A stretch of DNA of 61,236 nt, the filler included, from Hausera hauseri (lineage: Eukaryota), in NCBI GenBank assembly GCA_046269625.1. It is 11 parts of 11 records of this genome, joined end to end, with 100 filler letters (N's around TTAATTAATTAA, not from the genome) between each part and the next. Parts side by side here need not be neighbours in the genome. Positions count along the whole stretch, not along the records: positions 21,589 to 25,761 come from JBJURY010721213.1; 10 more parts are not named here. One strand, 5' to 3'. A program made the position numbers and the translations under genes. Shown one piece after another: positions 6,527 through 56,013 of the stretch. Under the pieces are notes generated by a model. It made no database searches. It worked only from the letters and a program-made list of their open reading frames with translations, and was not told where the DNA came from. Each line of letters starts with the position of its first letter. The stretch's first letter is position 1.

Positions 6527-6648
6527 TTGTTGTATATATTTTGTGTAAATAAATATTTCATTCTTTACTGTGTTTGTTTTATTAATAAGGTTTTTTAATC
6601 AAATACGTTTCATTTATACTGTTTTGTGAACATTTATAACATACAAAG

Positions 6649-7250: not shown

Positions 7251-7296
7251 GGTTTCCACTTTCATTTTCAATTTCTAATTTCGATTTCACTTTCGA

Positions 7297-9727: not shown

Positions 9728-11030
9728 AAAGTCCGTCTCTGCGCCCTTTTCCCCGTTTATCTCCCTTTAGATTTTTATCGCGTTTATTACAATTTTTGGA
9801 AACTAGAAAAATCGTCGCCGTTAATATAATAAGAACGAAAATTAACAAACTTAATATAGCTATTGTCGGTAATTTGTTTTCCTCAATAGAATTATTCGTA
9901 GTGAACGCACTTTGGGTAGTAATACCCTTATATTGCATTACTTCAATTTTGTTGTCTAGAGTTCGCACTGTATAAGTTTTAGGATTCTTACCCCTTGCAA
10001 TGATTCTGATTATATAGTTATGTAGCGGTCGTAAGTATAGTCATTCGGTTTCCGGACTATTCTTTCTTAAGACTACGATTTGATTGGTGTGCATGGTGCG
10101 ACATTCGATTTTGACGTCGTAAATTAACGTTTCCTCAACGTAAAATAGGATTTTGTTCCTTTTTGCCAAGACCTTAAACGGTATACTCCCTAGTTCTTTC
10201 TCGAGCAGTTCCTCCGAAGTGACGATCGCAGTAGTTAGAGTTGTACTCGGAACAGTGGACGGTTTCCCCGTAGTGGTTGGAAACGAAAGCTTCCATATTC
10301 CGATTTTGTGACGGTATCCCATTAAGTAAGTGCTTTGTTCGCCGGGATATGTATTGTACAAATTGAGTTGCAATTGATACTTCTGTCCTAGTTGCAATTC
10401 ACAACACACAGTAGGTCGCCGTCGGGCTAGATAACAGTACTCAGGGATAGGAGTCGAAGTAATTAGTGATACAAATCGGACGGGAATTTGTCTGTCTCCT
10501 CGTAGTTCTAACTTGGTTTTAATACGAATACATCAGTTCTTAAAGTCCTTATAAATTCCAATGATGTTGTAGTCTAAGAGTCTTTTAAATGGGTCAGTAT
10601 TTTGAATTATCTCCTCTGTTTTGGCTTGGCTTGTGTCCTTTTGTTGAGGCATTCTTATCAAAAAATCAGTAATGATATAGGCTTGGGCTCCAAGCTGATT
10701 GTAATAAAACATTTGAAACCTGTATCGGTAGGTTTGTCCGAAGTCCAAATCGCAACATTTCCTATGAATTTCATACGGAAAATCGCATGTTCTTATCGTG
10801 GATTTAGTTGCAAATATTATTTAAAATTTCACATGGTTCTGAATATGTCCACTTGCTTCGAACCACGCACATGGTTTGCTCTAATCCATATCGTACACTC
10901 TAATTGATTGCAAGTTTTGGATATCCTTTCGTCTTGCCGCATACTGTAATTTTTCGGTTTGAGTTATCGACTTCACCTTCGGTACATACGAAGCGATTAA
11001 CAATAAGGCGAAAATTATTTGCACGTATGA
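9711..11030 (-). pseudogene. Env-position type I membrane protein with three FN3-like domains (copy A)
   Basis: Signal-like YVQIIFALLLIASYVPKVKS; repeats CCDLDFGQTYRYRF, CCELQLGQKYQLQL, LRPLHNYIIRIIA; Thr-rich linker; TM ILSLLIFVLIILTATIFLV; basic tail. Confidence 0.7.
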
Positions 11031-11802
11031 TATCGGTCTCGCCGTTATGGACGATGTTTTTTTTTCTCTGTCCGTATATTCCGATTTCGCTCTGCTAGAA
11101 CGTAGATTGTCGCGTTTACTTGGTTTTATCTCGGTTTCAACTACTCTCTGAATCGATATGACCTCTTCCTTGCCATTTTTATTTATATAAACTGCGGTCG
11201 GTGTAGTTTTGGTATCTTCATACGGCCCTCTACTGGTTCTGCTAAGTTTGAGAGATGTGACTTTCTTGGTCACTGGATAGTGTACGTAAACTCAATTTCC
11301 TGGTTCTAGGTTGTGTGATTTAGCATTCTTGTCGTATTGCTTCTTAAATTGTTCCTGGTATTGTTTAGATAATTTCTTGGCTATTTCCAACACTTGTGTA
11401 ATCTCAGTTGTAATACCTCGACAAAATTCTGCTCCAATTCCTCCGTTTTTGTGGTCTAGGCAATTAATCCTAAATCTGTAGGCAGTACAGCTTCTCTGCC
11501 GTATATCATAAAAATGGAGTGAATCCTGTCGCAGGATTTGGGGTAGTGTTAATGGCAAACTGTGTACCTTCTAAGAACTCGTTCCAATCTTTCTGGTCTT
11601 TTGCGACTACTGTCTATAAGATTCGTGTAACTGTCGCGTTCATCCGTTCAACCATTCTATTACATAGGGGGTGATAAGCTATGGTAGTTAGTCGTTCAAT
11701 TTCGAAAATTTTGGTAATTTTATCAAACAATTAGCTCGTAAAGTTTCTCCCTCGGTCTGTTAAAATTTGTTCGGGCGGTCCGTATCTGCAAATAATCGTC
11801 CG
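11031..11802 (-). pseudogene. Gypsy-type integrase core and GPY/F region (copy A)
   Basis: ICRYGPPEQILTDRG, AYHP..NRMVERMNATV, FAINTT, GPYE; near-colinear with 32570-33270. Confidence 0.9.
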
Positions 11803-12006
11803 TGTGAGGAGGAATTCAGGCAGCCAATCTAAAGTGAGGAAATTCATAAGAGGAGGAAAATAAGGTTCATTTACTGATTGAATTGAGTGAAATGTTATAT
11901 CAACTTNNNNNNNNNNNNNNNNNNNNNNNNNNNNNNNNNNNNNNNNNNNNTTAATTAATTAANNNNNNNNNNNNNNNNNNNNNNNNNNNNNNNNNNNNNN
12001 NNNNNN

Positions 12007-13279: not shown

Positions 13280-16200
13280 TGCAACATGCCCGTGAAATAG
13301 TGTGCTTATTCCATCACCCAGGATCTGCATTTGTCACCTATTCAATCCAGGCTTTCGATGGATCACTTTGAACCCCTTTACCCGCTTCTTTACTTGACCA
13401 CATACATGAATCGCATACATTTTGGACATAAGAGCCATAAATCTCGACATGATTGTCCAATTCACCTCGTCCTTAAATTTCCCAAGGATCTTTTCGTTAG
13501 TAATTGAATAATTGGGATGTACTTCGGATAGTCAGAAGCATAGTACCCCGTCTTGTCTTCCTGATCAAATAATGTGGAATATAGGACAATGCCAACTAAT
13601 TTCATAACATACAGTGGACATTGTTGAGGACTTTGCTAAGTTCGTTCAGCATATGTATATGCTTGACATTCCGGCAGAGCATCCCAACTATTCAGTTACC
13701 AAAAAAATGTCCTATGTAAGGATCTGATAGATGAAACTACCAGTATCCATATACATCAGCTGTATGGACTTGAATGTGGGGACCATGATGTCATAGTGGA
13801 ATTTGTACATCAGGGTCCTTGACAGATCCAGTATTGTCATACCCACATATATGGGCTTGCTGAATTGCAAGGATGTTTTCATCATATTGATGCTGACCAC
13901 GTTCTCCGCATATATGATGCTGCTGTGGAAATTGGGCTTGGCAATGAGCATCTTTTCCCGCTTCCACTCAGAGACCAGTTCGATGTTGATCCTGTTGCGG
14001 ATAATCTCCATGGTCTTGCCAAAAACGCTGTTGTTGTAAAGCTTGAACTGATCCTTCTCAAAGTCGTTCTTGGCACTTGCCCGCAGTTTCGTATTGAGGT
14101 CTATATATTGTTTCGGCCAGTTAGACTGGTTGAACTGCAGGGCTCAATGAATCTTAGTAATGCGGAGTCAATTTCTGACTATCTGCTGGAGATTTATGCA
14201 GTGGACTACATACCTCTCCCTACTAACCAGATGACAGAGCAGCTTTCTATGCTTTCCATGGGGCGGAGGCTTGAACTTATGGAGGAAAGGCAGATGTTGA
14301 TGACTTGTACGGATAGAAGCAGGATATTCCATATCCACCTCAAGTATGTATCCGGTATCTCCAGTGGGATCCCGAATTCGGTCATATCTTGTTGGCCTCG
14401 CTATAGTAGTAAATGGACTAACATATTCCACCTCTAATGCCTCGCTCGATCATGAAGATCATGTCGTAATCCTTTATGATCTGCAGCCTAATCCCGGTGT
14501 ATCTTATCATAGCTGCCCAACTCATCCCTGGAGCCGTAAAGAAATGAACCAGATCCAATGCATGGCTCTTCATAGTAACATCTCTCAAACTCTCAAAGAC
14601 ATTCGTCAGCAGCAGAACGTCAGTCTTGAGGTATATGTCGCTATATTCTCCTCATGTTCGGCGTTGAAATGCATCCCAAACGTTCTGAGCATGCTGGTAG
14701 TCAGGACAACTAATATCGCAATCAGAGAGGATATTGCAAACGTCCTTGGCCGGCAATGAGGTCTAATCTAGTGTTTCCCATGAAATTATGTAGTCATAGA
14801 GAAACACGCCTTTCCTTTTGACAAGGTCAAATGTAGTAGGGAAGAAACGCTTCGTCTTCTTGAGTTCTTCTACAGGGAGGTTCTTCACTAAACTATCAAG
14901 TGAAAAAGACATGAAACGGAAACTGTAAATGAAGCGAAGCCCGATTTTCCCCACATGCTTGGTAAATGTTATGTACTTCTCCTCATTATTAGGGATCACA
15001 TCAATGTTTCGTTCAATGCTGCACAGTTCCCGAACAATGAAATGGGAATGATAGCCACTGAGATTATGGAACACTACAGGCACTTGTGTACATGTTTTGA
15101 AACGTAGATAGCAGTTGTTGCATACCGCACCTCGATATGTGCCTGTAAAATGGAAATGATCCCAGACTTTATAATTCTCCTTAGTGAATGATTTGGAACG
15201 CAACTAACATGCTGTTGCCTTGCGCCAGTTTTCTTCTTGCTGCTTCGACATGCTCATTGTATCCTTATGCTGCTGCTGCATATCTCCAATCCTATGAACC
15301 ATATCTTCAAGTCGCTTCATGAAATGAGCTGCTGCGCCTGGACCCCTGGATAGGTATGGTTCACTGTCTAGTGCTTTGGCATACATGCAATATGAGAGCT
15401 CATGATATTCGTATGCCGTTGTGCTGCTACGTTGGGGGATTAGGACTGCAACTCTGAACTGGACGCAGAATAGCCTCAAATTCGCATATAGATAATTATC
15501 GGGACGTTGATCTTCTTCTCGAACTCCTTGAATTCAATGGAGTCCTACTTGGGAAATTCCGGCTTGATACAATAATTATTGTTGCAGTACATCTTGTGTA
15601 CTGCAAGCTTAAATATTGGTACATCGCCGTTCAAATGAGACAAGCATCGTTTACATATTTCTATTTGTACATGATGTTTCGTAATTTGTGATCTTACTAG
15701 CCGCTCAAAGTCTTTGATCCAAACATACTGATTCTTCTCCATCGTCTCGTAGGAGCAGATCCCTATGATCTTTCAATTCAGCATCGCATATCTGCAGGGG
15801 ATAGAATTTGTCCTCCTCATCCAATCCCAAGATATTTATGAACATGTTGTTCACTTTTCCAAATTTTTTGACTTCATATATGGATGTAGGGAACTTGATA
15901 CATTGGAAGTCATAGTTGTGCTGAACATCCTTATATAGCCAAACTCGTGAAGCATGATTATGATCCGTTACGAGTTTTGATAAAATGGCATACATGAAAC
16001 ACATGTTGTCGCTATTATGGACATTGACATGCTTTTTTATTGGCGATCCAATCAGAAAGCTGAATATATGAACTGCCCCGCATGAGAGAGTACTTGTGAA
16101 CATACACAAGCAATCTCTTTATGGTTGCAAGAGTCCATCCGCTCTTCTTATCCTGACACTCCCGGCTTCACGGATCAGCTTTTCGTGCGCATCTTGCAGC

Positions 16201-21588: not shown

Positions 21589-24100
21589 ATGTCGTCCGGT
21601 GCGACAGGAATTTGATGGTAAGCTTTAGCTAAATCAATTGTCGAATAAACGGAAGTAGTATTAAGTCTATGTAATATGTCTTTAATTAATGGTAGTAGAT
21701 ATGCGTACATTATGGTTAAAGTATTAAGCTGACGGTAATCACCTCATGGTCAGAAGGATCCATCTTTTTTTGAACAACGTGGAGGGGCGAAGACCATGGT
21801 GATTTAGATCTCCGGACGATACCTGATTGTTCGAGTTCCATAAATTCAGCTTCTACTGCCTGTCTGCGTCGCAGTGACAATGGACGGACCTTTTGTCTAA
21901 TTGACCTTTGATGCCTTGTAATTATGTGGTGGTAAATGCTGTTTACTGGGGTGAAATTCCTATCTTTCTGAAGTATACGAGGACAAGAAGTATGGACGAA
22001 GTGTTGCAAACTTGCGGGTAGTTGCGGGAATGTTGTAATTGACGATGAACCGAGGTTGTTAGCAGTACTTGGTATATGGTGATTAGTTGTTGGTGAGGAA
22101 TCAAGTAGAGTTTTGAGTAGTATTGTCGGGTCCGGAACCGTGTTTTAGTATGTGTTATTGTTTAATGATTTTATGGAAAATACCAGATTGTCGGTGTCGA
22201 CATTGAGCCGTGATTGGCTGTCGACATTGTCCTTTGGAAGCTTACGATGTAAAACGTGATAGTTATTGGAATTAGAACGAGGTACTGACTGCTTTGAAAT
22301 GGATTGCTTACTTACTGTTGACTGTGATGTCATTGGGATGCTGTCTATACCTGTGCTACGGTCTACAGGTGTATTTGCTTTTAGGCAGCGTCGGTTACAA
22401 TCGACTAGCAACTTATCGTGCGAAAGGAAATCTGAGCCAAGTATTGCCGTCTGGACTTTAGCGACTGTAAACGTCCAATGAAATAAAGAGGAAAAGTTTG
22501 GTAGAGTAAAAGATAATTTACAAGTTCCAGCAATACAAAGAGATTGACCAGAGGTAGTGTATAAAGGTTTTATTTTAGGTGAAGAATGCTGAATCGGAAA
22601 GGAAAGTGGGAGTAGTGAGATCGCTGCGCCAGTATCGATGAGAAAACCTATGGATTGAATGTTAGGATTAGCGACAGCAGCTTTTATTGTGAAGACTGCA
22701 AATAAAGTGTGTCGGCAGTAGGAATTAGATAAACTGCCTTTGCCAGGATCTTCCGAAAATACTGGCGGCGAAATTAGTTTTTTTGGATTGGTGAGTTAGA
22801 ACGGTTACTGTTAGAGACGTTGGGACGTCTATCAGTGGGGTAGTTTTTGTTATTTTTATAGTTACTGCCAAAAATACAATTCCGAGCATTAAATCCGAAT
22901 TTTGCATGATAGATGCAAATTATGTTATTAGAGTGTAGATTCGATGAAAAATATCTACACCCTAAACAGCATTTATCTGCTTTGTTGTTAAATTTGTTGT
23001 GGTAATAACATATGAATGATCGCGATGGTGACGGTATCCGATTTCTGGAAGGAGAACGTGTTCGATGAGACGCGGAAGCATTCCGTCTGTATAAATAAAG
23101 GTCATTCAGCTTATCATTGATGGTGTTGATTGTGTGTTGGAATGCCACATTTTCGGCGCGTAATTGGTTCAATTGGTGCTAGATGGATGTATATCGTTAA
23201 TTGTCATCGTTCATAATAACGGCTGATATGATAGGTTGTGATTGGATTTGTCAGATTTCGTGTGCTTTATCTGCCAATTCAGCCAGTTTATCCAAGGCTG
23301 TGGAATCTTCAACAACGGTAAGTAAAGCCCTCATTTGAATAGGTTAAACATTAAGGAAATATCGTCGAAGTAGATCCGGATTGTGTTCATTGGTGACACC
23401 TAAAGTACGTAAGTGAACTAACGAGGTACGTAGGGAATCACTAGATTTTTGTATCTCCATTGCATTTTCATTAAGGAACGCTGTATTATTGAATCAATTG
23501 ATGGTTCTATCAGTTTTAACGCATCATTGAACAATTGCGCATAAGGGTCAGGGTGTTGAAAGATATTGAGTAAGTTATGGATTAAGGCCTTTATGGAGTT
23601 TGGTAGAAGGTAGAGTAGATTATGGGCTTTGGATAACGAGTCTCTAATACCGTTGGTTTGTAACCAGAGTTGATGGAAGTGGAGCCAAGTTTTGCCAGAA
23701 TTTTCATTGTCTATAAAGTATTCAGAGCAATGTAGGGGTGTAGTTGTAGGATTTTTGTGAAGAGTTAGTATCGGTTGAAGTAGGTGGATGGTTTAATTTG
23801 GGATAATAAAGAATGGATTTGGGTTTTGTGTTCACCTTATCTGTGATGTCACTGGTTGGTGAAGAAATCATACCGCCTCGAATTCTAGGGTGGATGTAAG
23901 TACAGAGGTAGCATTGTGAGGACGTAATGTGTGAGATGTCAGTTAAAATGAATCCATTGTGAGTCAAAAAGTCATTGAAGGCGGTGGCTTTATGAATGAA
24001 GTCATATAACTGTAATGTGTCGATACGTTGTGACATGTGCGATATGTATTAATTTATTATTTACAAAAAGGTGGATGGGAAATGACGTTGGTAAACAAAA
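21589..24100 (-). mobile_element. CsRN1/Kabuki-like Gypsy LTR retrotransposon fragment (gag, protease, start of RT), decayed
   Basis: Gag with two CHCC knuckles (CYYHNKFNNKADKCCLGC; CIYHAKFGFNARNCIFG); FLIDTGAAISLLP protease; GIVRRSKSPWSSPLHVV, DYRQLN, IDLAKAYHQIP. Confidence 0.9.
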
Positions 24101-24149
24101 AGCTGGGTAGTGTGGTATTTCCACACATTTTATCGGGTGGATTCTGAGT

Positions 24150-24927
24150 AAGTGATAACTTTGTGTCTTTGAATGGAATAACCGTCGATTTCTTTTTAAT
24201 AAAGAAGTATTCACCACTGTACAGTGACTCACGTAAAACATTCCAGGATTCCGTACCTAGATTGTAGATCAGTGGGAAAAATTCGCCTATGAAATTAAAT
24301 ACTTCAATCTCAATAGACTCTTTAATACTGTGTTTAAACTTTATTCTGGGACTGATGGGAACGGCATTCTGATAGTCAATATCAACAGCACATAATATTC
24401 GTAATAGTGTTTCAGTAGCATATAGGTGTGTCAATGCCTGCAAATGGTATCTGTTTCCAGAATAGGTTGGATGGAATCTTGGGAAAAAGGCTAAGAAAAA
24501 GTGCAGAGAATTTTGGAGAATTACATAGAGTAAGTGTTCCGCCGCCTATGAATAAAAGCCCAATGGACATAGAATACGTCATATAGACACCGTAATGAAG
24601 CGTATTTTTAGCTCGAATAATTGATCGAAGGCTTCGAGACATACGTAACCGCGTTAAATTACTAGTGCCGGATGCAATCTTGCACGCCGATAAATAGAGG
24701 ATGGATAAAGTCCAATCATAAAAATATTGCCTAATGTTCTCCAATAATTCACAATCGTTTTTTATGGATAATAATATTTCTCAATGTGCGAAAGAATAGT
24801 AGCAAGACCATCCTGCTTATCCGTACCAGCATATCGCATGACCATTACAAAACTTGACCCCACGAGCAACGAAAGGTAACTCATTGGCCATCAGAATATA
24901 CTTTTCAACAAAGTCCGTCGGTTGGAC
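24150..24927 (-). pseudogene. ANAPC1: Intronless fragment of anaphase-promoting complex subunit 1 (C-terminal PC-repeat region)
   Basis: MRYAGT, ASGTSNLTRLRMSRSLR, YGVYMTYSMSIGLLFIGGG, LFLSLFPKIP, QALTHLYA match APC1 motifs (RFAGS; MAGSG.L..L; HMA.GLLFLGGG; LQALRHLY); frameshifted. Confidence 0.85.
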
Positions 24928-25446
24928 CTATCGAAAGGAGTTGAGATACCCTTCGGACAGTTCGGGAAATATATAAAACAGATGAATACTCGTAATTGGT
25001 TTAAAAACGGCATTGCCAAAGCATTCCAATCTTTCTTTCCCGAACCTACCCGATCGTGTTATATGTCGATAAGGAATATGCGACGTTGCATTTACTATTT
25101 TACTCAAACCTTTCTTTCTGAGAGATCGATAGAGGTGTAGTTTGTCGCCGTATTCAATGTGTATTAATCCACAAGTAGTCATTGTGTTCTGAAAATGATC
25201 GGGGTTCGTTCCATAATTTGTGTTGCGATAAGATGGATGAGTCAATGCTTGATGCAACAATGGTTTGTCTTTAATCATGTACTTCAATCTCTCCTCAAGT
25301 TCCGAGAGGGAAAAATAAAAGCGTACATGACATAAAACACTTGGAATTAGTATGGCAAATTGTACAATATCGGTATAACGTCCTGTCTTAAAGAAAGGAT
25401 CGGAACGGATTTCGGGGTAAATCCGTGACGTTGGATTACGTTCATT
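24928..25446 (-). pseudogene. DROSHA: Intronless fragment of Drosha (connector and RNase IIIa region), non-vertebrate-like
   Basis: Open frame ...FFKTGRYTDIVQFAILIP...LLHQALTHPSY...NYGTNPDH...TCGL...YGD...RKKGL...ERLECFGNAV...TSIHLFYIFPELSEG vs Drosha LAMTHPS..NFGMNPDH..CGI..YGD..RKKGI..ERLEFLGDAV..TSVHLYYLFP.LEEG. Confidence 0.9.
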
Positions 25447-25861
25447 TCAAAATTTTCAATCAGTCTTGCAAGAGGTTTGAGAATCGGAGCCATGAAATAA
25501 GAATTTTCATTATTAGTCACATCTTTGATAATTGTGTCAAGATAGACAATAATAAAGGCAATCTCTTCATTATTCATTACTTTGCTGAGTCCCATAATTA
25601 TTTGATGGAGGCAGGCACTGACGGCGGCAAATATTTTGGTATTGTTATTGGAGCATAGATTTGTTCAGTTCCCGCTAATTCAAGTATGGGAGAGACTTTA
25701 TTTATGACTTTTGTAGAATTAAAGGGATGAACAATTACGTAGGTACTTAGGGTCGTGATAGNNNNNNNNNNNNNNNNNNNNNNNNNNNNNNNNNNNNNNN
25801 NNNNNTTAATTAATTAANNNNNNNNNNNNNNNNNNNNNNNNNNNNNNNNNNNNNNNNNNNN

Positions 25862-26426
25862 TGTGAATTCCTGTTAACGGAACAAGCTAGAGTTCTGTGG
25901 GCGGATTTCAAGGAAAAGAAGGGAAACCAACCGTCGGAAGAAGATGAACTCAAGGTTTTCGATCATCTGACTTTGCCGAACAAAGTCTTTACTCTTGTTT
26001 CGTTAAGAATTTCTTTTGGCGACTGCGTAGGGTTCGATTGAATCGCTCAACGAGTGCAGCCTTGTATTGAGAAAACACAGTAGTAGTTTACACCGAACCG
26101 ATTCAAGACTGATGCGACATGCGAGTTATAGAATTCTTTACACAAATCCGTTTGTATATATTTCGGCGGTTGTTGGTTTGTTAATGTGTGAACAGCGTCG
26201 GCAATTTCTTTACCGGATTTTGATTTGCACGTGCAAAACGATTAAATACATCAATACACGTCAGCACGTACAAATATCCATCATTAATGCTAGCGTACGG
26301 GATCATTTCCATCAGATCCGTTTGCCATATATTATTTACGTCTGCAGCGCGGTATGAACGAGTTGGAAACCGTTTTTTTATCTCTTTGTTCAGGCTGTAA
26401 CATAATCTTTGTGCAACAATCTTCAT
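25862..26426 (-). pseudogene. Polinton retroviral-like (rve) integrase, N-terminal/core fragment
   Basis: KKRFPTR...NIWQTDLMEM...NDGYLYVLTCIDVFNRFA is the typical Maverick integrase signature. Confidence 0.85.
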
Positions 26427-26439
26427 GCAACATAATCTA

Positions 26440-26887
26440 TGATAGTGATCATGGAGATTTTTAAACAGTATTAAATAATGTACGTTTAGATTTCGTGTTC
26501 AATGCTGTCCACTCTGATGGAACATGTTTTGCATAATGAAAATAGCCGTCACACCACGGTATGGTGCAATCTTCGTAAACAGGTTGTTGAAGTCGGTTTG
26601 TTTCGTGGCGTCTTGAAATAAATCTTCAGTGACAATAACGTCAACGTTGCGTAATCGTTCAGACCAGTTCTCGTCAAACCCATCTATTACTGTTATCCAT
26701 TTTAATTTACAAAATTCTTGATGTGTCAGACCGGATTCTCCATCACCTCCACTACCTTGATTCCGGTAAATGTGATTGGACCGCGGTGAATGCCACGGTA
26801 GTTTTGCAATAGTTTACAAACAAGGTATGTTTTACCATTTCCACTGAGACCTACAATCTGGAAAATTGCATTATTCTGCAGCTTCAT
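26440..26887 (-). pseudogene. Polinton FtsK/A32-like packaging ATPase (disrupted)
   Basis: MKLQNNAIFQIVGLSGNGKT Walker A; VIVTEDL Walker B; IFIMQNMF; NVHYLILFKN. Confidence 0.85.
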
Positions 26888-26930: not shown

Positions 26931-27392
26931 ATGTTAGCCAATATCAACTACCGCGGACATGTTGCCGAGTGTATTAATGCATCACCGTTTAGTCAATGGA
27001 AGCCGAAGCAGTATATCCACAAATGTTTACCAGATTTTACATGCGTTATATTTCAATCGAGATAGTGTCGTATTATGGGTTGTCGCAAACCAATCACAGC
27101 TGACAGTAACAGTAAACTACTGTGATTCGGAATTGTCATTGACGAAATTCAATCAATAATGGTAACGACTCAGTTAGATTGACCATCAATCAATCTATAC
27201 AAATTAGCAATGGCCACTGAATGTACGTATGAACCCGAACTGTTTCTTGCACTGAGACTGACATCGTTTCGCCCACTCTGTGTCAATGTGTTTAGCAGTG
27301 GAAAAATTGTTGTACTCGGTATTCAAGCAGTGGATTATGAACCGATTATTAATCAAATTGAAAACCGCAAATGTTCTAGTAAATCAAAATAA
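26931..27392 (+). pseudogene. TATA-binding-protein-like gene carried by the Polinton (3 in-frame stops)
   Basis: One frame from ATG 26931: FTCVIFQSR*CRIMG (TBP repeat 1, cf. TALIFSSGKMVCTG), IQSIMVT..INLYKLA, YEPELFLAL...VNVFSSGKIVVLG (repeat 2, cf. YEPELFPGL...LIFVSGKVVLTG). Confidence 0.8.
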
Positions 27393-27669
27393 CTTACTTT
27401 GCACAATAAACTATAAATACCATTCCGATGCTCTTTCAGACATTACTGCCATGGAATGCGACGATGAAACGATACTACGCAATGGTGACAGTGATGAGAG
27501 TTCAGATTAGTCATGGTTGTTTGGTGGCGAGAAAGATAATTCCAATGTCGAACTTCTGGAACCGAAAACAGAACCTGTCCAGCAATCGGCAAAGCCGTTA
27601 CTAAAACGGCAAGGGGTTGACAGTGGGATACGCAAACCAAAATTAAAGCCATTGGGCAATGCAATGGGA

Positions 27670-27804
27670 CAAATCGTATTTCTGTGAAGAGGCGGAATTC
27701 AGTGCAGTGTTACAGGAAGAGTGGGGATTGTTTTCTGTCAATGAAATACGAAATGAATGCAAAGAATTTGGTTTCGGTGATATGGACAAAACCACTTACG
27801 TTTA
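27670..27804 (+). pseudogene. dut: dUTPase C-terminal remnant
   Basis: CEEAEFS...IRNECKEFGFGDMDKTTYV* is nearly identical to the end of the dUTPase at 58837-59308. Confidence 0.7.
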
Positions 27805-27867
27805 ATTATACTAATAATAATTTCTTTAGTGTTATAAACAAAAATCGATTTTGTACGTAAACTAATA

Positions 27868-28320
27868 ATGGCGATTGGTTTTATAGATATTGAAGCTTTC
27901 CAAGACGACAATGCTCTTTACCTGATAAAGGACGTTTGTAACATTTTCAAATCACTTATGTACGTTTTCAAGCCATACGTTATGTGGAAACAGTTTACAG
28001 AAAGGGCGAAAATTACTAATGGATTTCTCATACGACATCGTAATGTAATTTATTGGTATGAAGGCAATTCAAACTTTTGCGTATCATGTATCATGATTGA
28101 CATTTGTGATCGTTTTGAAATCCAAAATACAATGTTTTACGTTAACGATCAAATTAAGGTTCAAAAGTTTGCGCAACTACACTCACAATTTGCCGACTTT
28201 CGAATGACGACGTATTCAACATCGAACAACTCAACAATGGTGGCGGTACCTGACAATATTCTAGGTCCATATCGTAAACATGAGCCGCATTGCGCGTACC
28301 GAAAATGTTTATCGCTGTAA
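27868..28320 (+). CDS. Polinton uncharacterised protein with N-terminal DxE (DEDD exonuclease-like) motif and C-terminal H..HCA..C
   Basis: 150-aa ORF MAIGFIDIEAFQ..YLIKD; homologs at 12784 and 59382; TATAAA at 27833. Confidence 0.7.
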   Translation: MAIGFIDIEAFQDDNALYLIKDVCNIFKSLMYVFKPYVMWKQFTERAKITNGFLIRHRNVIYWYEGNSNFCVSCIMIDICDRFEIQNTMFYVNDQIKVQKFAQLHSQFADFRMTTYSTSNNSTMVAVPDNILGPYRKHEPHCAYRKCLSL

Positions 28321-28402
28321 ATAAGGTCCATGACATATTTGGCCGTATTGATCGTCGAATTGTTCAAAACTATAACTAAAAGTAGTTTATAATAATAATA
28401 TT

Positions 28403-28600
28403 CATGGAAATAGTAGATCAGTTAAGCAATTGCAAAAAAATGGATTATCAACCAGTACTTGATAGTGATTTGGTTGTAAGAGCAGCAGATTTTTGACTTA
28501 AAGCAGATTTGGTGTCAATAGCATTGATGACAACAACAACAGATTGTAGCTCAATGGTAAATCTTATTATTATGGTAAATCAAATGTACATTCACCGATT
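28403..28600 (+). pseudogene. 5' remnant of the Polinton RING-protein gene (homolog of 59985-60200)
   Basis: Nucleotide similarity (atggaaatag...caattgcaaa...tagcattgatgaca...aatcaaatgta.attcaccg) to 59985-60200, in the same gene order. Confidence 0.65.
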
Positions 28601-28787
28601 TTATTTGTTATGAATAACCCAGATTTGCAGTAAAATTCATTTTCTTGTGAGTGTGCTGTTTATTATTCAACATTTTACGAATGAAATTTACAAACTGCTC
28701 TAATTTGTTAGAAACAAGAATATTCAAAGTAACGATAGTTGTTAGTACACCATAAATGAATTTCCACATCATAAATACCAGTAATAT

Positions 28788-31873: not shown

Positions 31874-31975
31874 NNNNNNNNNNNNNNNNNNNNNNNNNNN
31901 NNNNNNNNNNNNNNNNNTTAATTAATTAANNNNNNNNNNNNNNNNNNNNNNNNNNNNNNNNNNNNNNNNNNNNCC

Positions 31976-33273
31976 TTGACACTAAATAAAACAATCAAAA
32001 TTTCTGCCGAACAAGCCAAAGATAAAGTTATCCAACAAATAGTCAAATTTTCCGAGCAAGATGAGATACCAAAAGGACGTCAACTAAAGAAACACTTACA
32101 GAGACACGGACATAAATATTATTTATCAAATCCGGATAATATTTTATATTATGAACGCAAAGGATGGAAACTGGTTGTTATTCCAAAAGGATTACGCACA
32201 GAAGTACTAATGGCCAAACATGATTCACATCTAGCCGGACATATGTCATGGGAGAAAACATTAGAGTGTATACTGAATAAGTATTACTGGCCAAGCGTTT
32301 ATATCGATGTGAAAAATTGGGTGGACGCTTGTGAATGCTGCGCAACAAAACAAAGAAAAGTGAAAAACTATATAGCAGAATTAAAACCTATCGACGTACC
32401 AGACAGATCTATGCAAGCTACGTCTATGAATATAGTAGGATCTTTACCTACAACTCATAAAAATAACAAATATATTTTGACATGCGTAGATCGTTTAACA
32501 CACTTTGTGGAATTAATCTCATTAATCGATCAAAAAGCAGAAACATTAGCAGACGCAGTAGTAAGGAAAATCATCTGCAGATATGGACCGCCCGATCAAA
32601 TACTAACCGATAGAGGAAGAAGTTTTACGAGTGAGTTATTTGACAAAATTTCTAAAATCTTTGACATCGAACGATTAACTACTACCGCATATCACCCTTA
32701 GTGCAATGGGATGGTCGAGCGTATGAACGCAACAGTTATACGAGTCTTATCGACCGTAGTAGCGAAGGATGAAAAAGACTGGGATGAATTTTTAGAAGGA
32801 ACACAATTCGCTATCAATACTACTCCACATCCCGCCACAGGATTTACACCATTTTTTATGATGTATGGACGCGAAGCGATTTTACCTACGGACTTAGGGA
32901 TGACTCCGTATCACGCAAATCTAGAAGATTTAGAACCAAATTTTGCGGAAGTTTAGCAAATAAGATTACAAAAATATTGGGATATGGCGAAAACGCTCAC
33001 GCTTGAGTATCAAGAACAGTTTAAAAAACAATATTATAGAAAGCCAAACCTCACGATTTATAAAAATGAAACTGGGTCTATGTACACTACCCAGGTGCAA
33101 AGAAAGGCACCTCATTAAAATTTACTCGTACTGGACTAGGGCCTTACGAAGTTATTCGAACCACACCAACTACTGCCTACATTAATAAAAATGGTAAAGA
33201 AGAGGTATTATCCATACAGAGAATTGTTAAAACAGAAATAAAACCAGAAAAACGTTACAATCTGCGATCTAGC
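31976..33273 (+). pseudogene. Gypsy-type integrase (HHCC, DDE, GPY/F) of cargo LTR element copy B
   Basis: HDSHLAGH...CECC zinc finger, ILTDRG, MVERMN, GFTPFFMMYGRE, GPYEV; two stops. Confidence 0.93.
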
Positions 33274-34718
33274 TTGAATCAAGATAAAAAGAAAACGAAA
33301 ACGTCCTCTATAATTAGCGGACCAATATCTTACGTACAGATAATATTAGCATTATCGCTAATTGCCTCCTATATCCCGAGAACACAAGCTAAATGGTGGT
33401 ACGACAGTTACGGAGTTCGAAAAAGTGGAGCAAGATCGGAGGTTATTAAAACGGAAAAGAAATCAACAGTCAAAGGAAATCAAAGACAAGAAAATATAAG
33501 ATTATTACAAGCAATAATGATCCACTATTACTCGCCTAACTCTACATGCGTTGGATTGAAAACACGGAAACAACACCGAAATTCTGGAAGGATCCAAATT
33601 GTCTTAGATGATGTAATAACAAAAGAAGCAAAGAATTGTGATTTTGAGCCCGGAGAACGTACACAATGTTGCAATACGGATTTCGTACACACTTACAACT
33701 TTACCTCTCGACTATACGTACCGAAATGATCTAAAATCTTGAAATAAAACCACAATTCCAATTGGTCATCCCTGCATGGAACAGGCATCGTGGAATAAAA
33801 CCCAACAAAATGCTCAAGTCCGTCGACCCAGTAAATGGATGCTGGAAAAAAATATTGCCAGTATAACAGAAAACGCAAAGGACAGTTGTGTTCAAATAAA
33901 AACAAAAGGACGATTAATTAACGGTCGAGTAATCACGGTCCAATTCCTGAAAGAGAACATACCAGCTGACAACCAACAGTACTGCCAAATCGATGTCGAG
34001 CAACCGAAAATATGTTGCAAGTTACCCCAGAAATATAAATAAGATTCGGTTAAACTTATATGAAGTTAGATCAAACCAGTCGGGTATTTATCTAGGAATC
34101 TACCAATTTAGAAGTCCAATCGAGCAAAATTCACTTCGGACGACAACGAATACGGAAACAAAATCTACTACTCCTGCACTTATCAAAAGCACTCCAACGG
34201 ATAGATCATCTCAGAATGATCTAAAAATAATCCCTGTAAAATATTGGGCACAACAACGCGAAATAACGTTCATTGTGGAGGAAACACTTAACTACGACGT
34301 AGAAATAAGCTGCCGAACATTACACGATAATCGGAAGGTAACACTGCCAAAAGGCAGCTACCGAATCAAATGTATCGGATTGAAACTCAAAACAGATTAT
34401 ATAATACAAATGGGTGCAGAGAACAAACAAGGTTCAGTGTTAACAATACGGACCTTAAAAGAGATTGTCGTAACGAAACCACTGACTGATGAGAAAGCAG
34501 AGGATGGGACTACGACTACCGCCAAAATGGAAAATTTAACTAAATGGACAGCGTTGTCATTAACATCGATTACTGGAACGTCAGTATTTGCTTTCATAAT
34601 TTTAATTGCGTTTTGTCGATTGGTTACCAAAAACTGTTGTACCAAGCGTCATAAAATCACCGAGAGGGAGTTAAGGGTGGTGGTACCGCAGGATGGAATC
34701 AATGATGGAATAACCTGA
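33274..34718 (+). pseudogene. Env-position type I membrane protein with three FN3-like domains (copy B), in frame with the integrase C-terminus
   Basis: YVQIILALSLIASYIPRTQA signal-like segment; two C..C..CC domains; GLKLKTDYIIQMGAENKQG FN3 signature; TM SVFAFIILIAF; colinear with copy A. Confidence 0.72.
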
Positions 34719-36731
34719 CAACTACAGATTGGGTTATTCCACCATCAAACAAATAATTGGTTCAGATTTAGAACAATACTTTGTTTTAGGACTGACCCTT
34801 ATTTTTTATTTTCTTTCAGAATGGTAAGTATGATCAGCCGAATTAGAGTCGACGAATTCCTACAAGGATACGCAACGGTCTTCATTCCCAAACCGAAAGC
34901 CATATACAGAAGGATAAATGACCCATTACAAACAGAAACATACGTCGAATACCGGAAAGTAAACGAAATACCAAATGACTTGAAGGATACCACCGAATAG
35001 AACCGCACAATTTTCCTATACGCGATGCGCAAAAACAATCAAGCTAAGTCATATAGCCTTAAGGAAATGATCCAGAATAGGATCGCCCAAGTGGAAGATA
35101 TATTTATCCATCTAGCTAATGACGAAGTGTACTATAGAATAGAAAATCAACGATGGAACTGTAATAAATGGCGCCAATACCGATTTAGTACATTCAAAAT
35201 AAGCGGACAAGGCCTAAAAAGTATCGATTATGACCTAGAATTTACATAGAGAAAACTGCAACTTAGGCTTGCCAGTTCTAGAATTCAAACAAATCCCAAC
35301 CTAAACGGAGAAAGACGAACATTACCAGTCATATAGGCTAGTACAGGATGTCGTAATACAAGAATTATGGCGATAAATTGTGGCAGAGGAGACGATGCGT
35401 ATGGGATACCTATCAAAGTATCTATTAGAGAAAGAGATGAAACTGAGCTTTACTCTACCATTATAAACCCCAGGAAACATGTTCAAGAATGATATGCGGA
35501 AGTAACTGGTTTACGAAAGGAACAACTTATAAGCGGAAAAGACATTCAATAGGTCCATTCTGAGTTAGACCATTGCCTCTACGGGTGTATGATAACGGGA
35601 TACAACGTAAAACGGGAAACCGAGCTATTAGGGATATCCGATACAAATATTGCCGGACTTAGGGAAATAGCTACTCACCCAATGGTTCAGAAACAAATGG
35701 AAAAGACCGTACAAGGAAGAAATAGGCCGACTACACCAGAAGCCTTCTTCAACCTGATGATCGAATCAATGAATAATAATTCGGGCAGAATTCCCAGACT
35801 TCTGACGACCAGCCAACGCTCCAAAAATTTGCAGGAAATTTATAAGACATTAAAATGGGAACATGAATGGGCCCTACAAGCCCTACATACAATTTACGTA
35901 GTTCCTTGAAATCTGAACAGATAGACCTCAAATATAGAAAAAACATCAAGCCCTATTTCCCGGTCAGGACTGTCCAGCCAACAGACAAACATAGTCTCAG
36001 GATTACCGTACCAGAACCAAGGGGAGAACAAGGAAGTAAAACGAAATTACGGAGGATCAAAGAAAAAGATAAGACATTAGAGGGAACATCAAAGTCTCCG
36101 GAAGAACAAAGAGACGAACCAAGGCCAGAAATAATAATTAAAAAGATGAAGTTGGAAGAGAAACCCCAGCCCAGGAAGACTTTATCCATTTATAATTATC
36201 TATTCAAGAAGAAAAGGGAAGATAAAGAACAAAAAGTAGAAAACCAACAAAACAGGCCAAGTATCGCACAGAAGATAGAACCATTGAAAAAGGGAATTAA
36301 GAGTCCCATAATAATGGAAATTAATGCCCTAATAGGAAAAAGAAAAAAAGGGGACGTGCATTGCAGAACAGCCCAAGATTTTCCTAGAATGCTGGTAACT
36401 ACTGAATATTATAGTAAAAAGACGATAAAAGAAGCTATGTTTTTCATCAAAATTGCCCCAGCAAGAGAAGTCTTTGAAGATACCTATGTATTGGAAAATA
36501 CTAAACTGGAAACTTATCTTACATCAATTTTTGGTTCAAAGAGGACCAAAAAAATAGTAGTTCCTGTGGATAAACAAATTCGAATATTGTTAAAGAAACT
36601 ATCAAAAATATAAAATAGAAGGAAAGATTCCTGACCTAGACAAGGATCTTATCAAGGATTGGACTTTGATACAAGTGAACTGTGACTCACGTAAAAGTTC
36701 AATTAACCCTAAACAAAAGGTAATTCACGGA
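34702..36731 (+). pseudogene. Accessory ORF3 of LTR element copy B (inactive DEDDh fold, Lys-rich linker, conserved unknown domain); cut by the contig end just before the RING
   Basis: RIMAINCG..IKVSIR..LYSTIINP..VTGL..GKD..HCLYG..IAGLREI..EHEW; EYYS..IKEA..YL..IF..PVD.Q.RI.LK..IPDLDK..WTL..KSSIN shared with copy A. Confidence 0.75.
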
Positions 36732-36831: not shown

Positions 36832-36908
36832 TTTTTCACTGACCTAGCCTTGAAAACACACCCTTTTTACTGACTACCCAAAAAAGGTACCCCTTTTTCA
36901 CTGACGAA
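36832..36908 (+). repeat. Exact 77-bp direct repeat at both ends of the contig (second copy 47516-47592)
   Basis: Base-by-base identity of the first and last 77 nt of the contig. Confidence 0.95.
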
Positions 36909-37044
36909 CTGTACGAAAACACCTCTTCAATTATCACACATATTTTGCATTGCATTTATTTTTCTATTACTTGTTTTAAACATTGTATTTCACTGACCTT
37001 GGAGTTATGTGACCTAATGTGTAACTGAAGCAAGACTTATAAGA

Positions 37045-37330
37045 TCCATCCATCCATAACCCAATTCTTTCTTTCGGGGTCATAGGGGTCACTGGTGTTT
37101 ATATCCAGCAGTCTGTGTGAGAGGCAGGGGGTACCATGGACAGGTCGCAAATCCATCACAGGGACATAAAGACAAACAAGACACTCTCTCACTTAAACCT
37201 AGGGACTATTTAAGACTTACCAATTAACCTAACCTAACCAAACAGTCGTGTTTTGGTCTATGGAAAGAAACCGGATTACCTGGAGAAAACCTACATATGC
37301 AGAGAGAACGTGCAAACTCTCCCCAGAGAG
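37045..37330 (-). mobile_element. Fish SINE (V-SINE/Mermaid-like), degenerate
   Basis: catccatccat tail, ggacaggtcgc..atccatcacaggg and ggaagaaaccgga.tacctggagaaaacc.aca motifs typical of this family. Confidence 0.65.
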
Positions 37331-37599
37331 CTCCCCTAATAGGTTAAAATGTGAATACACAGGGATTGATAATACATATTGTTTATAGAAGGACAGTAAT
37401 AAGTAATGCAATAAGTAACAATACAACTGCATTAAAAAGTTTCAATACACATCCCAACCTTTATTGGTGTATATTACAAGATATAGGAAACTGAAATGGA
37501 GTGTGGGTCAGGATGCTTAATATTTATTCTATTATCTTTACTGATTATTACTTTATTCTGTTCTTTAACTCTTTCTATACTTTTATTTGCTCTGTTCTT

Positions 37600-38200
37600 T
37601 CCCATATGAAACCAAATACAAATAAACAACTAAAAAACTTAAATAAATAAAATAAACAAACATATATATAACTTAAATAAATAAATAGTATTCTATAATC
37701 ATATTCTGTTTATTACGTTTGTTTTTAAAAAAAATCTAATTAAGTTAATACTTTTGCTTCCTGAATCTCTTTGTAGTAAATTTATTAAATTGAATGTTTC
37801 TTTAATGGTTCTGAATGCTTCCATCATCGCTCTCCTTTCTCTCTCATATCTTTTACATATTAATATTACATGTTCTATGGTTTCTGTCATTCCACAATGT
37901 TGGCAATTTCCATTTTCATGTTTCATGTAGTGTGCTGTTAAGTCCAGTGTGCCCCAATCTCAATCTTGTTATTAAACTCTCTTCCTTTCTGTTTCTCCCA
38001 GTTACTCTCCTTTCTCCCACTCTCCTTTGGATCTTATAAAACCATCTTCCTTTATTTTCTTTGTTCCATTCTTTTTGCCACTTTTCTTTCAGTTTTTGTT
38101 CGACTAAACTTTTTGCCTCAGATTTACTCGTATTTATTGTAAAGTTGATTAGACCTGTTGTTGCCCTTTTTGCTACTCTGTCTGCTGCTTTTCCCTCCAG
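37600..38200 (-). mobile_element. 3' end of an I/Nimb-clade LINE (RNase H end and CCHC knuckle)
   Basis: ADRVAK, KWQKEW, ITRLRLGHTGLN, CQHCGMTETIEHVILIC; A-rich (TAAA)n tract beyond the ORF end. Confidence 0.8.
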
Positions 38201-39110: not shown

Positions 39111-39114
39111 CCAC

Positions 39115-52155: not shown

Positions 52156-52659
52156 GGAGGTGTATATCTGAACCTGTCATAATGGACACGGAGACGAAGA
52201 AGCACATAACCGGAAATCTTAACACCTGTCAGAGAAAGTAAAGGCGGTCAGGCCTTATTGTGACCACATGCTCAATTTAGTGCCGTTGGTCAATGAAAAA
52301 TATGGACAAGACCTCTACATGTATATCTACGTCTTAGGGGATGAGGTTATACAACACCGCTTGCAGAACCTTGGTTCACCCCCAGCCCCGTCGGGACAAC
52401 AGGAAAACTCTTCAGTACAATATGCAAAGCCCCATATAATTTGTGGTAACATAATACTATCATCTCCGCAGTCTCATCACAGAACGAGACACAGACAACA
52501 TTTTTATTTGTAAGATCATAATCCAGGTACACAAACATATAAATAGGCGTGCGTACACACAGTCACTCGTCTTCACACCCGCATTAATATAACTGAAGAA
52601 TATGCGACATAGAAGAAAACAAAACTGAACGTAGAAATGTATGATATATGTCGCTCTTG

Positions 52660-55600
52660 TCTCGGCGATAGTTGTTTTAAAGATATGATGTGCAGGAGCG
52701 GCTTGTGGTCAGTTTGAATAACAAATGGACGAGAAAGAAGTATGTGTTTGAAATGTTTTACTGCCAGAACTATAGCGAGTAACTCACGGTCAAATATTGA
52801 ATAGCGGCTTTCGGATTATGTAAGCTTCCTAGAGTAAAATTCTAATGGTTCATCAACCCCGTCGGAAATCTGGTGTAGTACTGCACCGGTAGATGTGGTT
52901 GAGGCATCGGTCGTAAGTATGAGATCTGCCTTTGGCTTCGGATAGGCTAGTATTTCTACGGTTTTTAGGCATTCGCGTAAGTGATCAAATTTGGCGACTA
53001 AATAAGGAGTCCAGTGGATTAATTGTCGCTTTTTTCTTGAAGATAGATGTGCGAAAGGTACCATGAGCTCAGAACAAAGAGGTACGTATTTGTGGATGAA
53101 GTAGAGTGTGCCTAAAAAACTTCTCATATCCGTCGTGGTCGTTGGTAGCGTTATGTTTTTCAATTATTGTAGTCGATCCGGTTGTGGAGAGTGGCCGTTA
53201 GGAGTGATCACGTGGCCTAGGAAATTAACACGATTTTGGAAAAATGACACTTAGAGAAATTGATTTGCAAATTGCTGTGATGTAATCTGTGAAAGATAAT
53301 ACGGAAGTGTTCTTGATGTTGTTTAACAGATGTAGAGGCAACTAATATGTCATCAATGTATGGATGAGCAAAGTCAAGGCCTGAGAAAACGGTATCAATG
53401 TGTCGTTGAAAAGTTTGGGAAACACTACGTAAACCAAATGGCATAAAGATACATTCATAGAGGTCAAATTGAGTAAAAAACAGCATTTTTGGGAATATCA
53501 TCAGATGCAACCGGAATTTGATAATAAGCTTTATGCAAGTCAATTGTGGAGTATGTGTTAGTGTTGGTAAGACTATGCAGGCTGTCCTTTATGAGAGGTA
53601 AAGAGTAAGCATCCAGGGCTGTTAGGTTGTTTAACTTACGATAGTCACCACATTATTTGTAAGTGCCATCTTTCTTTGTCACTACATGCAAATGTGAAGC
53701 CCATGGAGATTTGGATCTTCGAATAATGCCAGCCTTTTCGAGTTCATTGAACTCTGATTCAACAGCTTTTCGCCTACTAGGTGACAGTGGTCTGACCTTT
53801 TGTCTGATAGGTCTTTGGTGTTCGGTGACTATGTGGTGATAAGTTGTAGAATGCGGATTGAAATTGACGTCCTTCTTAAGAGTGCGTAAACAAGAAGTTT
53901 TGATGTAGGATTTAAGATTGGATTCCAACGACAAAAATGATGAGGGCATATTATTGGAAGAGTCAGTAGCTGTAATTGATGTACAATGACTGAACACTTC
54001 ATTAACGACATTCGGTTCAACCGATTGTTTCAAGAGTAATTTCTTTCCACTTGACAAAATTGAAAATATTGATGAATTATTAAGAGTATTGTTATCAGCC
54101 GATGAACAGCATGAAATTGATATTTGAATGAACAGAGGAGAACAAGAAGGTGTGTGACTGGTCGTCTGGTGAACATTTGTTGGTATTTGCAACGGAGTTT
54201 TTGCGCAGGATACATCTGTGCTTACAGTCGACTAACAAATCGTATGCAGCCAGGAAATCGTAGCCTATTATGAGCGATCTAATATTGGCTGTGAAAATTC
54301 TAAGAGAATTTCCCTGGTAGGTTGGAGAATGTGAAGGACAGTTTTGTGGTATCTACAGTGTTCAAGGGTTGACCACAGGCAATGAAGAGTGGAGGAGAGA
54401 AAACTGTGTTAGATGTAGGAGCAAAGGACAAAGGAAGAGTTGAAAAGGCAGCCCCAAATTCGATAAGGAAGTCTATGTGAGGTGTCTCCAAATAACAGTT
54501 TAGCTTTCAACAGAAAGACTGCAGAGGCGGTGTTGAAACGGCCAGAAGATTGAGCAATATTGCCTATACCAGAATGTGTCGTGGCATCTGGCGCCGTTAT
54601 TAGTTTTTGAGGCTTGTTGGGAAAAAGAAGAGGAATGATGAGTACGAGGATGCGAAAAAGATGGAGAAAAACTAGAATTCTTATAATATTTGCATCCTGG
54701 CACACACGACCTGGCCTTGGGCTGATACTTTGTGTGATAAATGCAGACTGGGCTGTCTACTTCATAAAGTTCGTAGTAAAATCTACAGCCTAAAACACAC
54801 TTTTTTGCGTCTCTGCGGAATTTACTGTGATAAAAACAAGTCTTTCTTCCATTTTGAGATTTGGACCGAAAGGAGTGTCTGGAAAGGTTACAACTGCGTG
54901 AAACACGGTTATCACTTCTTTTGGGCACAGATAAATCATTAAGTTGGGATGTAATCGCAGAAATTGCCTGTTGGAGTGTGTCGAACCGTTTCTGCATCAT
55001 ATGCAGTTGTTGTTAAAAGAAAGTGTTATCTGCGTGTGATGGCTTGTGAGCGGTTTCTGCAGCTACTGATTGTGAGCTATTTGATTGCAAGATGTGGAAA
55101 CTTCTGTCTGCCAGTAAGGCGAGTTTCTCGAGTGCCGTTGAATAGTCTACTACCGTGAGCAAAGCTGATAGAGGTGGGCAAAAAAGAAAGGAAATACCAA
55201 CGAAGAAGATCGGCATTGCTTGCAGGAGTGAAGCCTAAGAAACTCAGCTGAGAAATTGCAATTTTAAGGAAATCCGAAGGTTTTTGAGTTCCGATAGCAT
55301 GCTCATTGAAGTACTTTTGTATTATGCTGTCAATGGAAGGGTCGGTGATATGTAGGACTGATTCATAAAGCATATCATATGGATTTGAAGAGGTGAGTAT
55401 ATCGGCAAGATTATTGATCTTCTGCTTGATATTTGCTGGAAGAAAAAGCAACAAGCTGTTCGCCGGCAAGAAAGAATCTGTAATGTGATTGGCTTTAAGC
55501 CATTGCAAACGGAATTTTAACCAGGTGAATCTCGAATTCGTTTTGTGGAGAAAACATGTGTAAGGAAAATTTGGAAATTCTGTTGGTGTGGGGTCGGCAG

Positions 55601-56013
55601 GACGACGACCAGATCTAGTCTTAGTGGGATTTTCAAAATAAGAAGGATCGGGGTCCGATACACCCCGTAGGCGAAAGTGTCGAGTAAGATGGATAATTTT
55701 GGAGGAAAATGCAGAAAGCTGATCATAGACGTTAAGTATTGAGCAATGATACGAGATAAAAGTCTGAGGAGTGGAGGAGGAAGGATAGGTGTGTAGCGCT
55801 TAAGATATAGAGCTGTATATTATTGAAAAAGACAAGCATGGATAAAGGATGTGGTGCAGCCGGGACGGTGATACTCGGTTCCCCAAACAAATCATTCATT
55901 GATTGCGCTTTAAGACCGAAACTACTTCTCAATAATGAAAAGACAGCTCTCTCCTGATTAGGACTATCATAGTTCTGAGATGACATATAACACTCACGTG
56001 AATCATCAGCATC
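52660..56013 (-). mobile_element. CsRN1/Kabuki-like Gypsy element (gag, protease, RT, RNase H), decayed; relative of 21589-24100
   Basis: Two CHCC knuckles; degenerate protease FLIEFGAAFSTLP; SPWASHLHVV; MPFGL; YIDDILV; TTDAS..GAVLHQ; YSIFDRELLAI. Confidence 0.93.

Follow-up and report, generated by a model that had tools for sequence, protein, structure and literature searches.

Capture of host genes by long terminal repeat (LTR) retrotransposons is already known in plants and animals; maize Bs1, a plant element, is said to have transduced several genes. Tan et al. 2016 (PMC5131818) describe LTR-mediated retrocopies that are truncated at both ends and have several parents owing to template switching, such as CG4799_CG11924_r in Drosophila and the four-gene 'Super' retrocopy in mouse. 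The CsRn1 clade of Gypsy elements is dominant in tapeworm genomes (PMC12471100), and CsRn1-like elements are defined by a CX2HX9CX3C knuckle in gag (PMC2582038). Here we describe a chimera of fragments from two essential genes, Drosha and APC1, upstream of a decayed CsRn1-like Gypsy element in a 61,236-nt stretch of DNA (the window) from the Hausera hauseri assembly GCA_046269625.1. The window consists of 11 contigs (4.1-10.8 kb) separated by 10 identical spacers, and the chimera forms the upstream (minus-strand 5') half of the 4,173-nt contig at positions 21589-25761. An earlier note on this DNA had proposed a string of Drosha, APC1 and possibly UTP20 fragments ahead of a Gypsy gag. The chimera is real in the assembled sequence, with Drosha and then APC1 beside the gag, but UTP20 was not confirmed and several details turned out otherwise.

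The open reading frame (ORF) at 25446-24928 on the minus strand matches a solved Drosha structure with E 3e-36, in agreement with the RNase IIIa fragment described earlier. It ends with NSFR at 24931, followed by a TAG stop at 24930-24928. Among the 177 proteins found, the record P0001 was the best match (113 of 161 residues identical, 70% over 161 amino acids), followed by 14 fluke, tapeworm and related records at 51-55% identity and then mostly by arthropods at 43-52%. In a tree of 32 rows, comprising the window sequence and 31 of the 120 listed matches, the window pairs with P0001 (support 97/81) inside the flatworm clade (100/100), and the pair falls outside flukes plus tapeworms (99/95). 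The branch of the window sequence is long (0.59), so its exact placement is unsure, and planarian and named monogenean records are absent from the comparison set. The window and P0001 also have in common 12 residues at sites otherwise invariant in 13 fluke and tapeworm records. Judged by its sequence, the piece is of flatworm origin. Drosha is a conserved single-copy gene in flatworms (PMC5594548).

The similarity extends upstream to 25472 in another frame (15 of 19 residues identical, P0001 958-976, tblastn), across a frameshift at about 25415. The junction that the earlier note had placed near 25447 therefore lies inside Drosha. By eye the fragment starts at 25481; we place the true 5' junction at about 25473-25482. 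In P0001 numbering the piece spans residues 958-1138 out of 1589. It breaks off ahead of the second half of the RNase IIIa active site, and the remainder of this domain is missing, as are RNase IIIb and the dsRNA-binding domain. The RNase III signature reads ERLECFGNA (25035-25009, minus strand), the signature of P0001 is ERLECLGDA, and the other 30 tree rows have ERLEFLGDA. As P0001 also has the cysteine, this residue is a lineage trait and only the L to F and D to N changes are copy-specific; the altered signature had earlier been taken as a whole. The D of the RNase III signature is the catalytic aspartate. With the D to N change and an incomplete fragment, this is not an active Drosha RNase III.

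Downstream of Drosha lies a fragment of anaphase-promoting complex subunit 1 (APC1). Region 24723-24466 aligns to residues 1511-1595 of human APC1 (E 6e-8), and 24497-24369, in another frame, to residues 1585-1627 (E 4e-4). The core at 24723-24369 thus corresponds to human residues 1511-1627, with a frameshift at about 24490, and these alignments identify it as APC1. The flanks (24930-24724 and 24368-24176) were assigned by resemblance and composition only: 24887-24771, in another frame, and 24368-24165 look APC1-like by eye, a family resemblance that the searches did not confirm. The run that follows the Drosha stop in the same frame (VQPTDFVEKYI...), earlier read as APC1, does not align with APC1 in that frame over its first 68 codons, and similarity in this frame begins only at 24723. 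Two word-seeded searches yielded no closer flatworm APC1 relatives (0 of 384 and 0 of 182 candidates), and thus the ends of the APC1 piece and its taxon are not tool-defined. The APC1 frame stops at 24059, so APC1 is not joined in frame to gag and does not run into it as had been thought.

Ahead of Drosha, the second frame of a coding-like 5' piece (25664-25482) continues into Drosha without a stop. An Atlas search with this piece gave generic helical, HEAT/ARM-like clusters only, with a recognition of 2249, below the 2300 mark. The suggested UTP20 identity found no support in Pfam, PDB, Atlas, full HMMER or tblastn searches, which a short, frameshifted, decayed fragment could escape. Seven HMMER matches turned out to be summed alignments to repeat-rich proteins, and one of the seven was weakly recovered by tblastn (E 0.54).

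Drosha, APC1 and the Gypsy gag-protease-reverse transcriptase (RT) region are all on the minus strand, as the earlier note had stated. The gag has a weak DUF7041 match (E 0.03-0.05) and a CX2HX9CX3C knuckle at 23010 (minus strand), with a degenerate second one at 22917. By this CHCC knuckle the element is assigned to the CsRn1-like Gypsy elements. In pol, Pfam matches were obtained for RVP (E 0.04) and RVT_1 (E 6e-4), and the RT core on this contig is 51 codons only. The element has 5 stops in 744 codons and several frameshifts, and it retains its leader, gag, protease and the start of RT. The frameshifts lie at or near homopolymer runs, and some may be sequencing errors.

The composition switches to the C-rich (sense-strand) pattern of the element at about 24176 (0 of 300 permutations; support 24539-24078). 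In the contig of the chimera we found no LTR-like repeat and no hallmark of a long interspersed element (LINE), a Helitron or terminal inverted repeats (TIR). No tRNA-Trp primer site was present in 23700-25761; in the window there are 12 matches with at most 2 mismatches, compared to 10.2 expected by chance. Thus, the absence of a recognisable LTR or primer site between APC1 and gag, observed earlier, is confirmed. Scans for tRNAs and Rfam families found nothing. There is no poly(A), the longest A run in 24300-23700 being 5 nt, and old tails can erode. An AATAAA at 24058-24053 could be an LTR or mRNA signal; the window contains 136 such motifs. The contig stops at 25761, and the data do not reach a 5' LTR or primer site that may lie beyond it.

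A sister copy of the element lies on the contig 51865-56013, its gag, protease and RT being 34-71% identical to those of the element at the chimera (gag 34-63%). Its knuckles are at 54838 and 54745. The sister copy is C-rich too, with a composition change at about 55870, shortly upstream of its leader (1-2 of 300 permutations). No tRNA-Trp site within 2 mismatches was observed upstream of gag in either copy, and both contigs end before any LTR. The 143 nt upstream of the sister leader (56013-55870, minus strand) have a different composition and an open frame, and no Pfam match. This stretch could be an LTR end or another piece of cargo.

Table 1. Features of the chimera, the adjacent element and its sister copy (positions in the window)
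Feature	Position	Strand	Remarks
Decayed pol start: aspartic protease (DTG), linker, first part of RT	21589..22696	-	1 stop, frameshift near 21750, cut by contig end
Decayed Gypsy gag, CsRn1-like	22777..23750	-	frameshift near 23476, 4 stops
Gag leader ('extended N-terminus')	23872..24073	-	broken near 24050, ends PRIRGG
Linker, C-rich and G-poor like the element	24074..24175	-	no LTR, primer site or poly(A) recognised
APC1 C-terminal fragment	24176..24930	-	tool-confirmed core 24723-24369
Drosha fragment of flatworm type, P0001 residues 958-1138	24931..25481	-	connector region and first half of RNase IIIa; decayed
Coding-like 5' piece, two frames (25759-25601, 25664-25482)	25482..25761	-	possibly helical/HEAT-repeat
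Artificial spacer: N run, TTAATTAATTAA, N run	25762..25861		contig end at 25761
Sister Gypsy copy	52576..56013	-	leader, gag with two intact CHCC knuckles, protease, RT, RNase H

The Drosha piece and the APC1 core are colinear with their relatives and contain no insertions: 542 nt correspond to 181 amino acids of P0001 (543 nt), and 355 nt to 117 amino acids of APC1 (351 nt). The lengths agree within 1 nt for Drosha and 4 nt for APC1. Candidate intron sites, for Drosha only, were derived from slips in the gene models of 17 flatworm Drosha records and not from the parental gene. Before VHRRE, the Opisthorchis and Echinostoma models both break, and the window is contiguous at 25437/25436. Before SIHLF, an insertion in Hydatigera (a tapeworm) and a skip in Echinostoma (a fluke) fall in the same column, and the window is contiguous at 24991/24990. 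The third probable site is marked by a 14-residue skip in Heterobilharzia and corresponds to the contiguous stretch 25110-25069. Two of these three sites are marked in two independent species each. The absence of introns at all three favours, but does not prove, an mRNA source. In Gyrodactylus salaris there are on average four exons per 906 nt (PMC4040987). At this intron density the chance of zero introns in the 892 confirmed nt is about 0.05, a crude figure in which the species is a stand-in. The parental genes presumably had introns in the captured stretches. At residues 1186-1203 or so, just downstream of the captured stretch, P0001 has an in-frame insertion in the same column as the record of the tapeworm Mesocestoides. 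This is probably a mis-spliced intron in both gene models, and from this shared insertion the lineage of P0001 probably keeps ancestral introns.

We put the probability at about 0.55 that several mRNAs were captured by template switching into the 5' region of the CsRn1-like element and that the product is now neutral debris. A flatworm CsRn1-like Gypsy retrotransposon would have co-packaged host mRNAs, and its RT, switching templates several times, would have stitched together internal pieces of 0.3-0.75 kb from three transcripts (those of the gene of the 5' piece, Drosha and APC1). The resulting chimera would have been placed in the 5' region of the element, upstream of the gag leader. After integration it would have decayed neutrally, with about 10% substitution, frameshifts and stops in gag. 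The pieces are internal fragments of unrelated long genes that abut each other and are co-oriented with gag-pol. Since these truncated, co-oriented and apparently intron-free pieces stand ahead of a Gypsy element, mRNA capture by an LTR element, already put forward in the earlier note, is the best explanation, and it fits the known multi-parent retrocopies. It falls short of proof, as neither the 5' LTR nor microhomology at the junctions nor the exon structure of the parents was visible. That the pieces entered via this very element and by template switching, and that its 5' LTR lies beyond the contig end, we infer.

Several observations weigh against this reading. Retroelement sequence is known on one side only, since the contig breaks off at 25761 and shows neither an LTR nor a primer site. 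The sister copy is without Drosha or APC1 cargo. The cargo is upstream of gag, whereas in the accessible text of PMC5131818 the Drosophila cargo replaces a part of the ORFs. The intron sites were deduced from annotation slips in other species and not from the parent. At its 5' boundary the Drosha piece is within approximately 3 codons of a position inferred as an exon start, a placement that splicing could equally have produced; its 3' boundary falls in the middle of an exon. Finally, three pieces on the same strand are by themselves expected by chance in 1 case of 8.

The boundary near an exon start, together with a cargo-gag interval without LTR or primer site, would agree with a host chimera that arose independently, by LINE template switching or by Helitron/Pack-type DNA capture followed by splicing and retroposition, with the Gypsy copy adjoining later and its 5' LTR deleted in a repeat graveyard; the nearby low-methylation contigs are indeed nested repeat debris. 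We regard this origin as possible but doubtful, as poly(A) and any LINE, Helitron or TIR hallmark are missing in the contig, the join is about 100 nt upstream of the gag leader with leader-gag-pol whole, and the composition of the sister copy changes at a similar place. It is quite improbable that the pieces were brought together at the DNA level, as segmental duplicates of intron-poor genes joined by deletions or end-joining repair without an RNA step. The parental genes are not seen, and monogenean genes can be compact (PMC4040987), but the three inferred intron sites are absent, and such an origin requires the loss of about 1.35 kb of Drosha and more than 4 kb of APC1 coding sequence, as well as intergenic DNA, with the pieces on one strand. 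Little probability, too, is given to an assembly chimera of low-coverage contaminant reads. The contig is small, unplaced and probably from a co-sequenced parasite, and its frameshifts at or near homopolymer runs mean that base quality may be low. However, misjoined real genes would be intact, yet 18 of the 86 invariant Drosha residues are substituted; moreover, misjoining would have to occur three times, always on one strand, and there is no repeat at the junctions (the 11-mers found lie elsewhere).

The earlier note had also raised the possibility of a decoy or small-RNA source, with neutral debris as the alternative. Selective retention of the Drosha piece, whether for a dominant-negative decoy effect or for supplying small RNAs that act on the host small-RNA machinery, seems to us very unlikely, and least probable of the origins considered. 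The change of the catalytic D to N would agree with it, as would the 0 internal stops in 484 cargo codons compared to 5 in the 744 element codons, and the 5' piece in frame with Drosha. Parasitic flatworms are without piwi (PMC4040987), and small-RNA control of transposons may matter more in them. On the other hand, of 86 sites that do not vary among 14 intact flatworm Droshas, 18 are altered here, 15 of them by one base, and radical changes (G to P, S to P, R to I, E to I, I to R, E to K) are spread over the whole fragment. In simulations, 10% neutral decay alters 20% of residues, and 161 stop-free codons have a probability of 0.17. The altered sites thus fit about 10% neutral decay, making a protein decoy unlikely; the frameshift at 25415 and the incomplete nuclease point the same way. 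There are two further stops at the piece boundaries, the flanking frames were chosen for being open, gag itself is dead, and the cargo is absent from the sister copy. Few small RNAs from a copy that has diverged by about 10% would match the parent perfectly. Neutral debris is the reading in best agreement with the data: the best explanation is that the chimera has no present function, and the capture of Drosha in particular looks accidental.

If captured in this way, the chimera is a new, decayed instance of a known process. It resembles the retrocopies of Tan et al. 2016 in having partial, both-end-truncated pieces of at least two unrelated mRNAs beside LTR-retrotransposon sequence, without poly(A). 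It differs in that the cargo in all 15 Drosophila cases of the accessible text replaces a part of the internal ORFs, while here it is upstream of gag. As the ORFs are not replaced, the chimera works like these retrocopies but is not a strict member of the class. Moreover, it is old and decayed, with one visible flank (the 3' element side), and its host is a flatworm, whereas the species mentioned in the accessible text of PMC5131818 include none.

With the CsRn1 clade (CsRn1, PwRn1, AgCR; PMC2582038) the element shares the CX2HX9CX3C knuckle, the gag-protease-RT order and a flatworm host, but both copies have two tandem knuckles and an extra leader ahead of gag, and there is host-gene cargo. 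Elements of this clade have a tRNA-Trp primer site, TGT..A(A/T/C)A LTRs and a 4-bp target duplication; here the element ends lie beyond the contig. The giant planarian elements Burro/GYPSM1 (PMC6431247) are also flatworm Gypsy elements with host-like domains, but the domains in Burro are in frame within a huge intact polyprotein with CCHC gag and env, whereas this cargo is broken, out of frame and found in one copy. Strings of unrelated gene fragments in or beside a mobile element are likewise produced by Pack-MULE and Helitron capture (PMC6431247). Such capture of DNA differs in that introns are normally retained and in its terminal repeats or hairpins, which are not seen here. Other copies of the chimera, which the earlier note suggested looking for, are absent from the other 10 contigs of the window, and a scan of prokaryote genomes gave 2 weak RNase III-like matches among 59 candidates. 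In the open-access literature, searched by titles and the starts of abstracts, we found no report of a Drosha retrocopy captured by a transposon and no matching one of flatworm Gypsy elements taking up genes.

The leader of the sister gag ends with HFRLRG, resembling the end of the leader at the chimera; apart from these two, the window contains R-[LI]-R-G just 3 times over all six frames. MAFFT aligns the two leaders at 33% identity. The local alignment is not significant (2287 of 5000 and 126 of 200 shuffles reach its score). The global alignment is weakly significant at 1-4% (200, 65 and 46 of 5000 shuffles under three gap settings), with settings chosen after the motif had been seen. The leader is probably a feature of the element rather than cargo. 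By eye we likened it to the SDE2-type ubiquitin fold, a resemblance for which the searches gave no support. It has no Pfam, PDB or Atlas match, and single-sequence folding gave one helix only, with a pLDDT of 51. No report of ubiquitin-like gag leaders was found in the open-access literature, a part of this search being too broad to inform. It is conceivable, albeit unlikely, that a CsRn1-like family of flatworms with two CHCC knuckles in its elements has a ubiquitin-fold leader (R-[IL]-R-G-G) clipped by host deubiquitinases to release Gag, and habitually takes up strings of host mRNA in its 5' untranslated region while keeping gag-pol. Such a family would spread, for example, Drosha fragments in a piwi-less lineage, possibly together with small RNAs against them.

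The observed/expected CpG ratio is 1.06 in the contig of the chimera (cargo 1.12 and element 1.05, that is, alike) and about 1.0-1.1 in four other contigs. Ratios of 0.39 (contig 1-5396) and 0.32 (contig 36832-47592) indicate vertebrate-like depletion, and the remaining contigs are intermediate (0.55-0.82). We infer that the window is a bin of unplaced contigs mixing the DNA of two organisms. The earlier note had omitted both that 25761 is a contig end and that this contig differs from the surrounding vertebrate-like ones. Given the flatworm-type Drosha, the contig of the chimera is probably parasite DNA among vertebrate-like contigs. A monogenean fish parasite would be a candidate source, suggested by the vertebrate-like neighbours. 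Myxozoan origin, our first guess from the CpG pattern, was ruled out by the ranking of the Drosha homologues and the tree. The 10.8-kb contig has a 77-nt perfect direct repeat at both ends (36832-36908 and 47516-47592), which may be an assembly overlap or reflect circularity.

Other mobile elements were observed in the window. A Polinton-like contig contains a TATA-binding-protein-like ORF fragment (27183-27389, plus strand; Pfam TBP, E 8e-8) and an integrase remnant (26184-26498; rve, E 3e-4), and this is possibly a TBP gene borne on a Polinton/adintovirus-like element. A dUTPase fragment (58934-59164, plus strand; E 3e-10) adjoins a 1-kb block at 59150-60208 that is 71% identical to 27655-28604; together they are a second copy of the Polinton-like element at the latter position. 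Two decayed copies of a protein-primed B-family DNA polymerase with an endonuclease VII domain, of the Polinton/adintovirus type, lie at 13358-15538 and 49585-51762 (78-82% identical). Two related Gypsy-like elements at 5497-11906 and 31974-36731 (71% identity over 820 nt) have an integrase followed by extra ORFs. One of these ORFs, at 33951-34718, ends in a hydrophobic stretch that by eye resembles a membrane anchor, and another, at 7300-7806 in the element 5497-11906, encodes a RING finger (E 3e-8). The extra ORFs of this pair are possibly env-like and accessory genes.

As the assembly bin probably mixes in parasite DNA, annotating the Drosha and APC1 pieces as if they belonged to the main organism should be avoided. 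Of greater interest, were intact copies to confirm it, would be the ubiquitin-like gag leader. If our interpretation of the chimera is true, multi-gene mRNA capture by LTR retrotransposons also occurs in a flatworm and can place its cargo ahead of gag, which would add modestly to what is known of this mechanism of exon shuffling.

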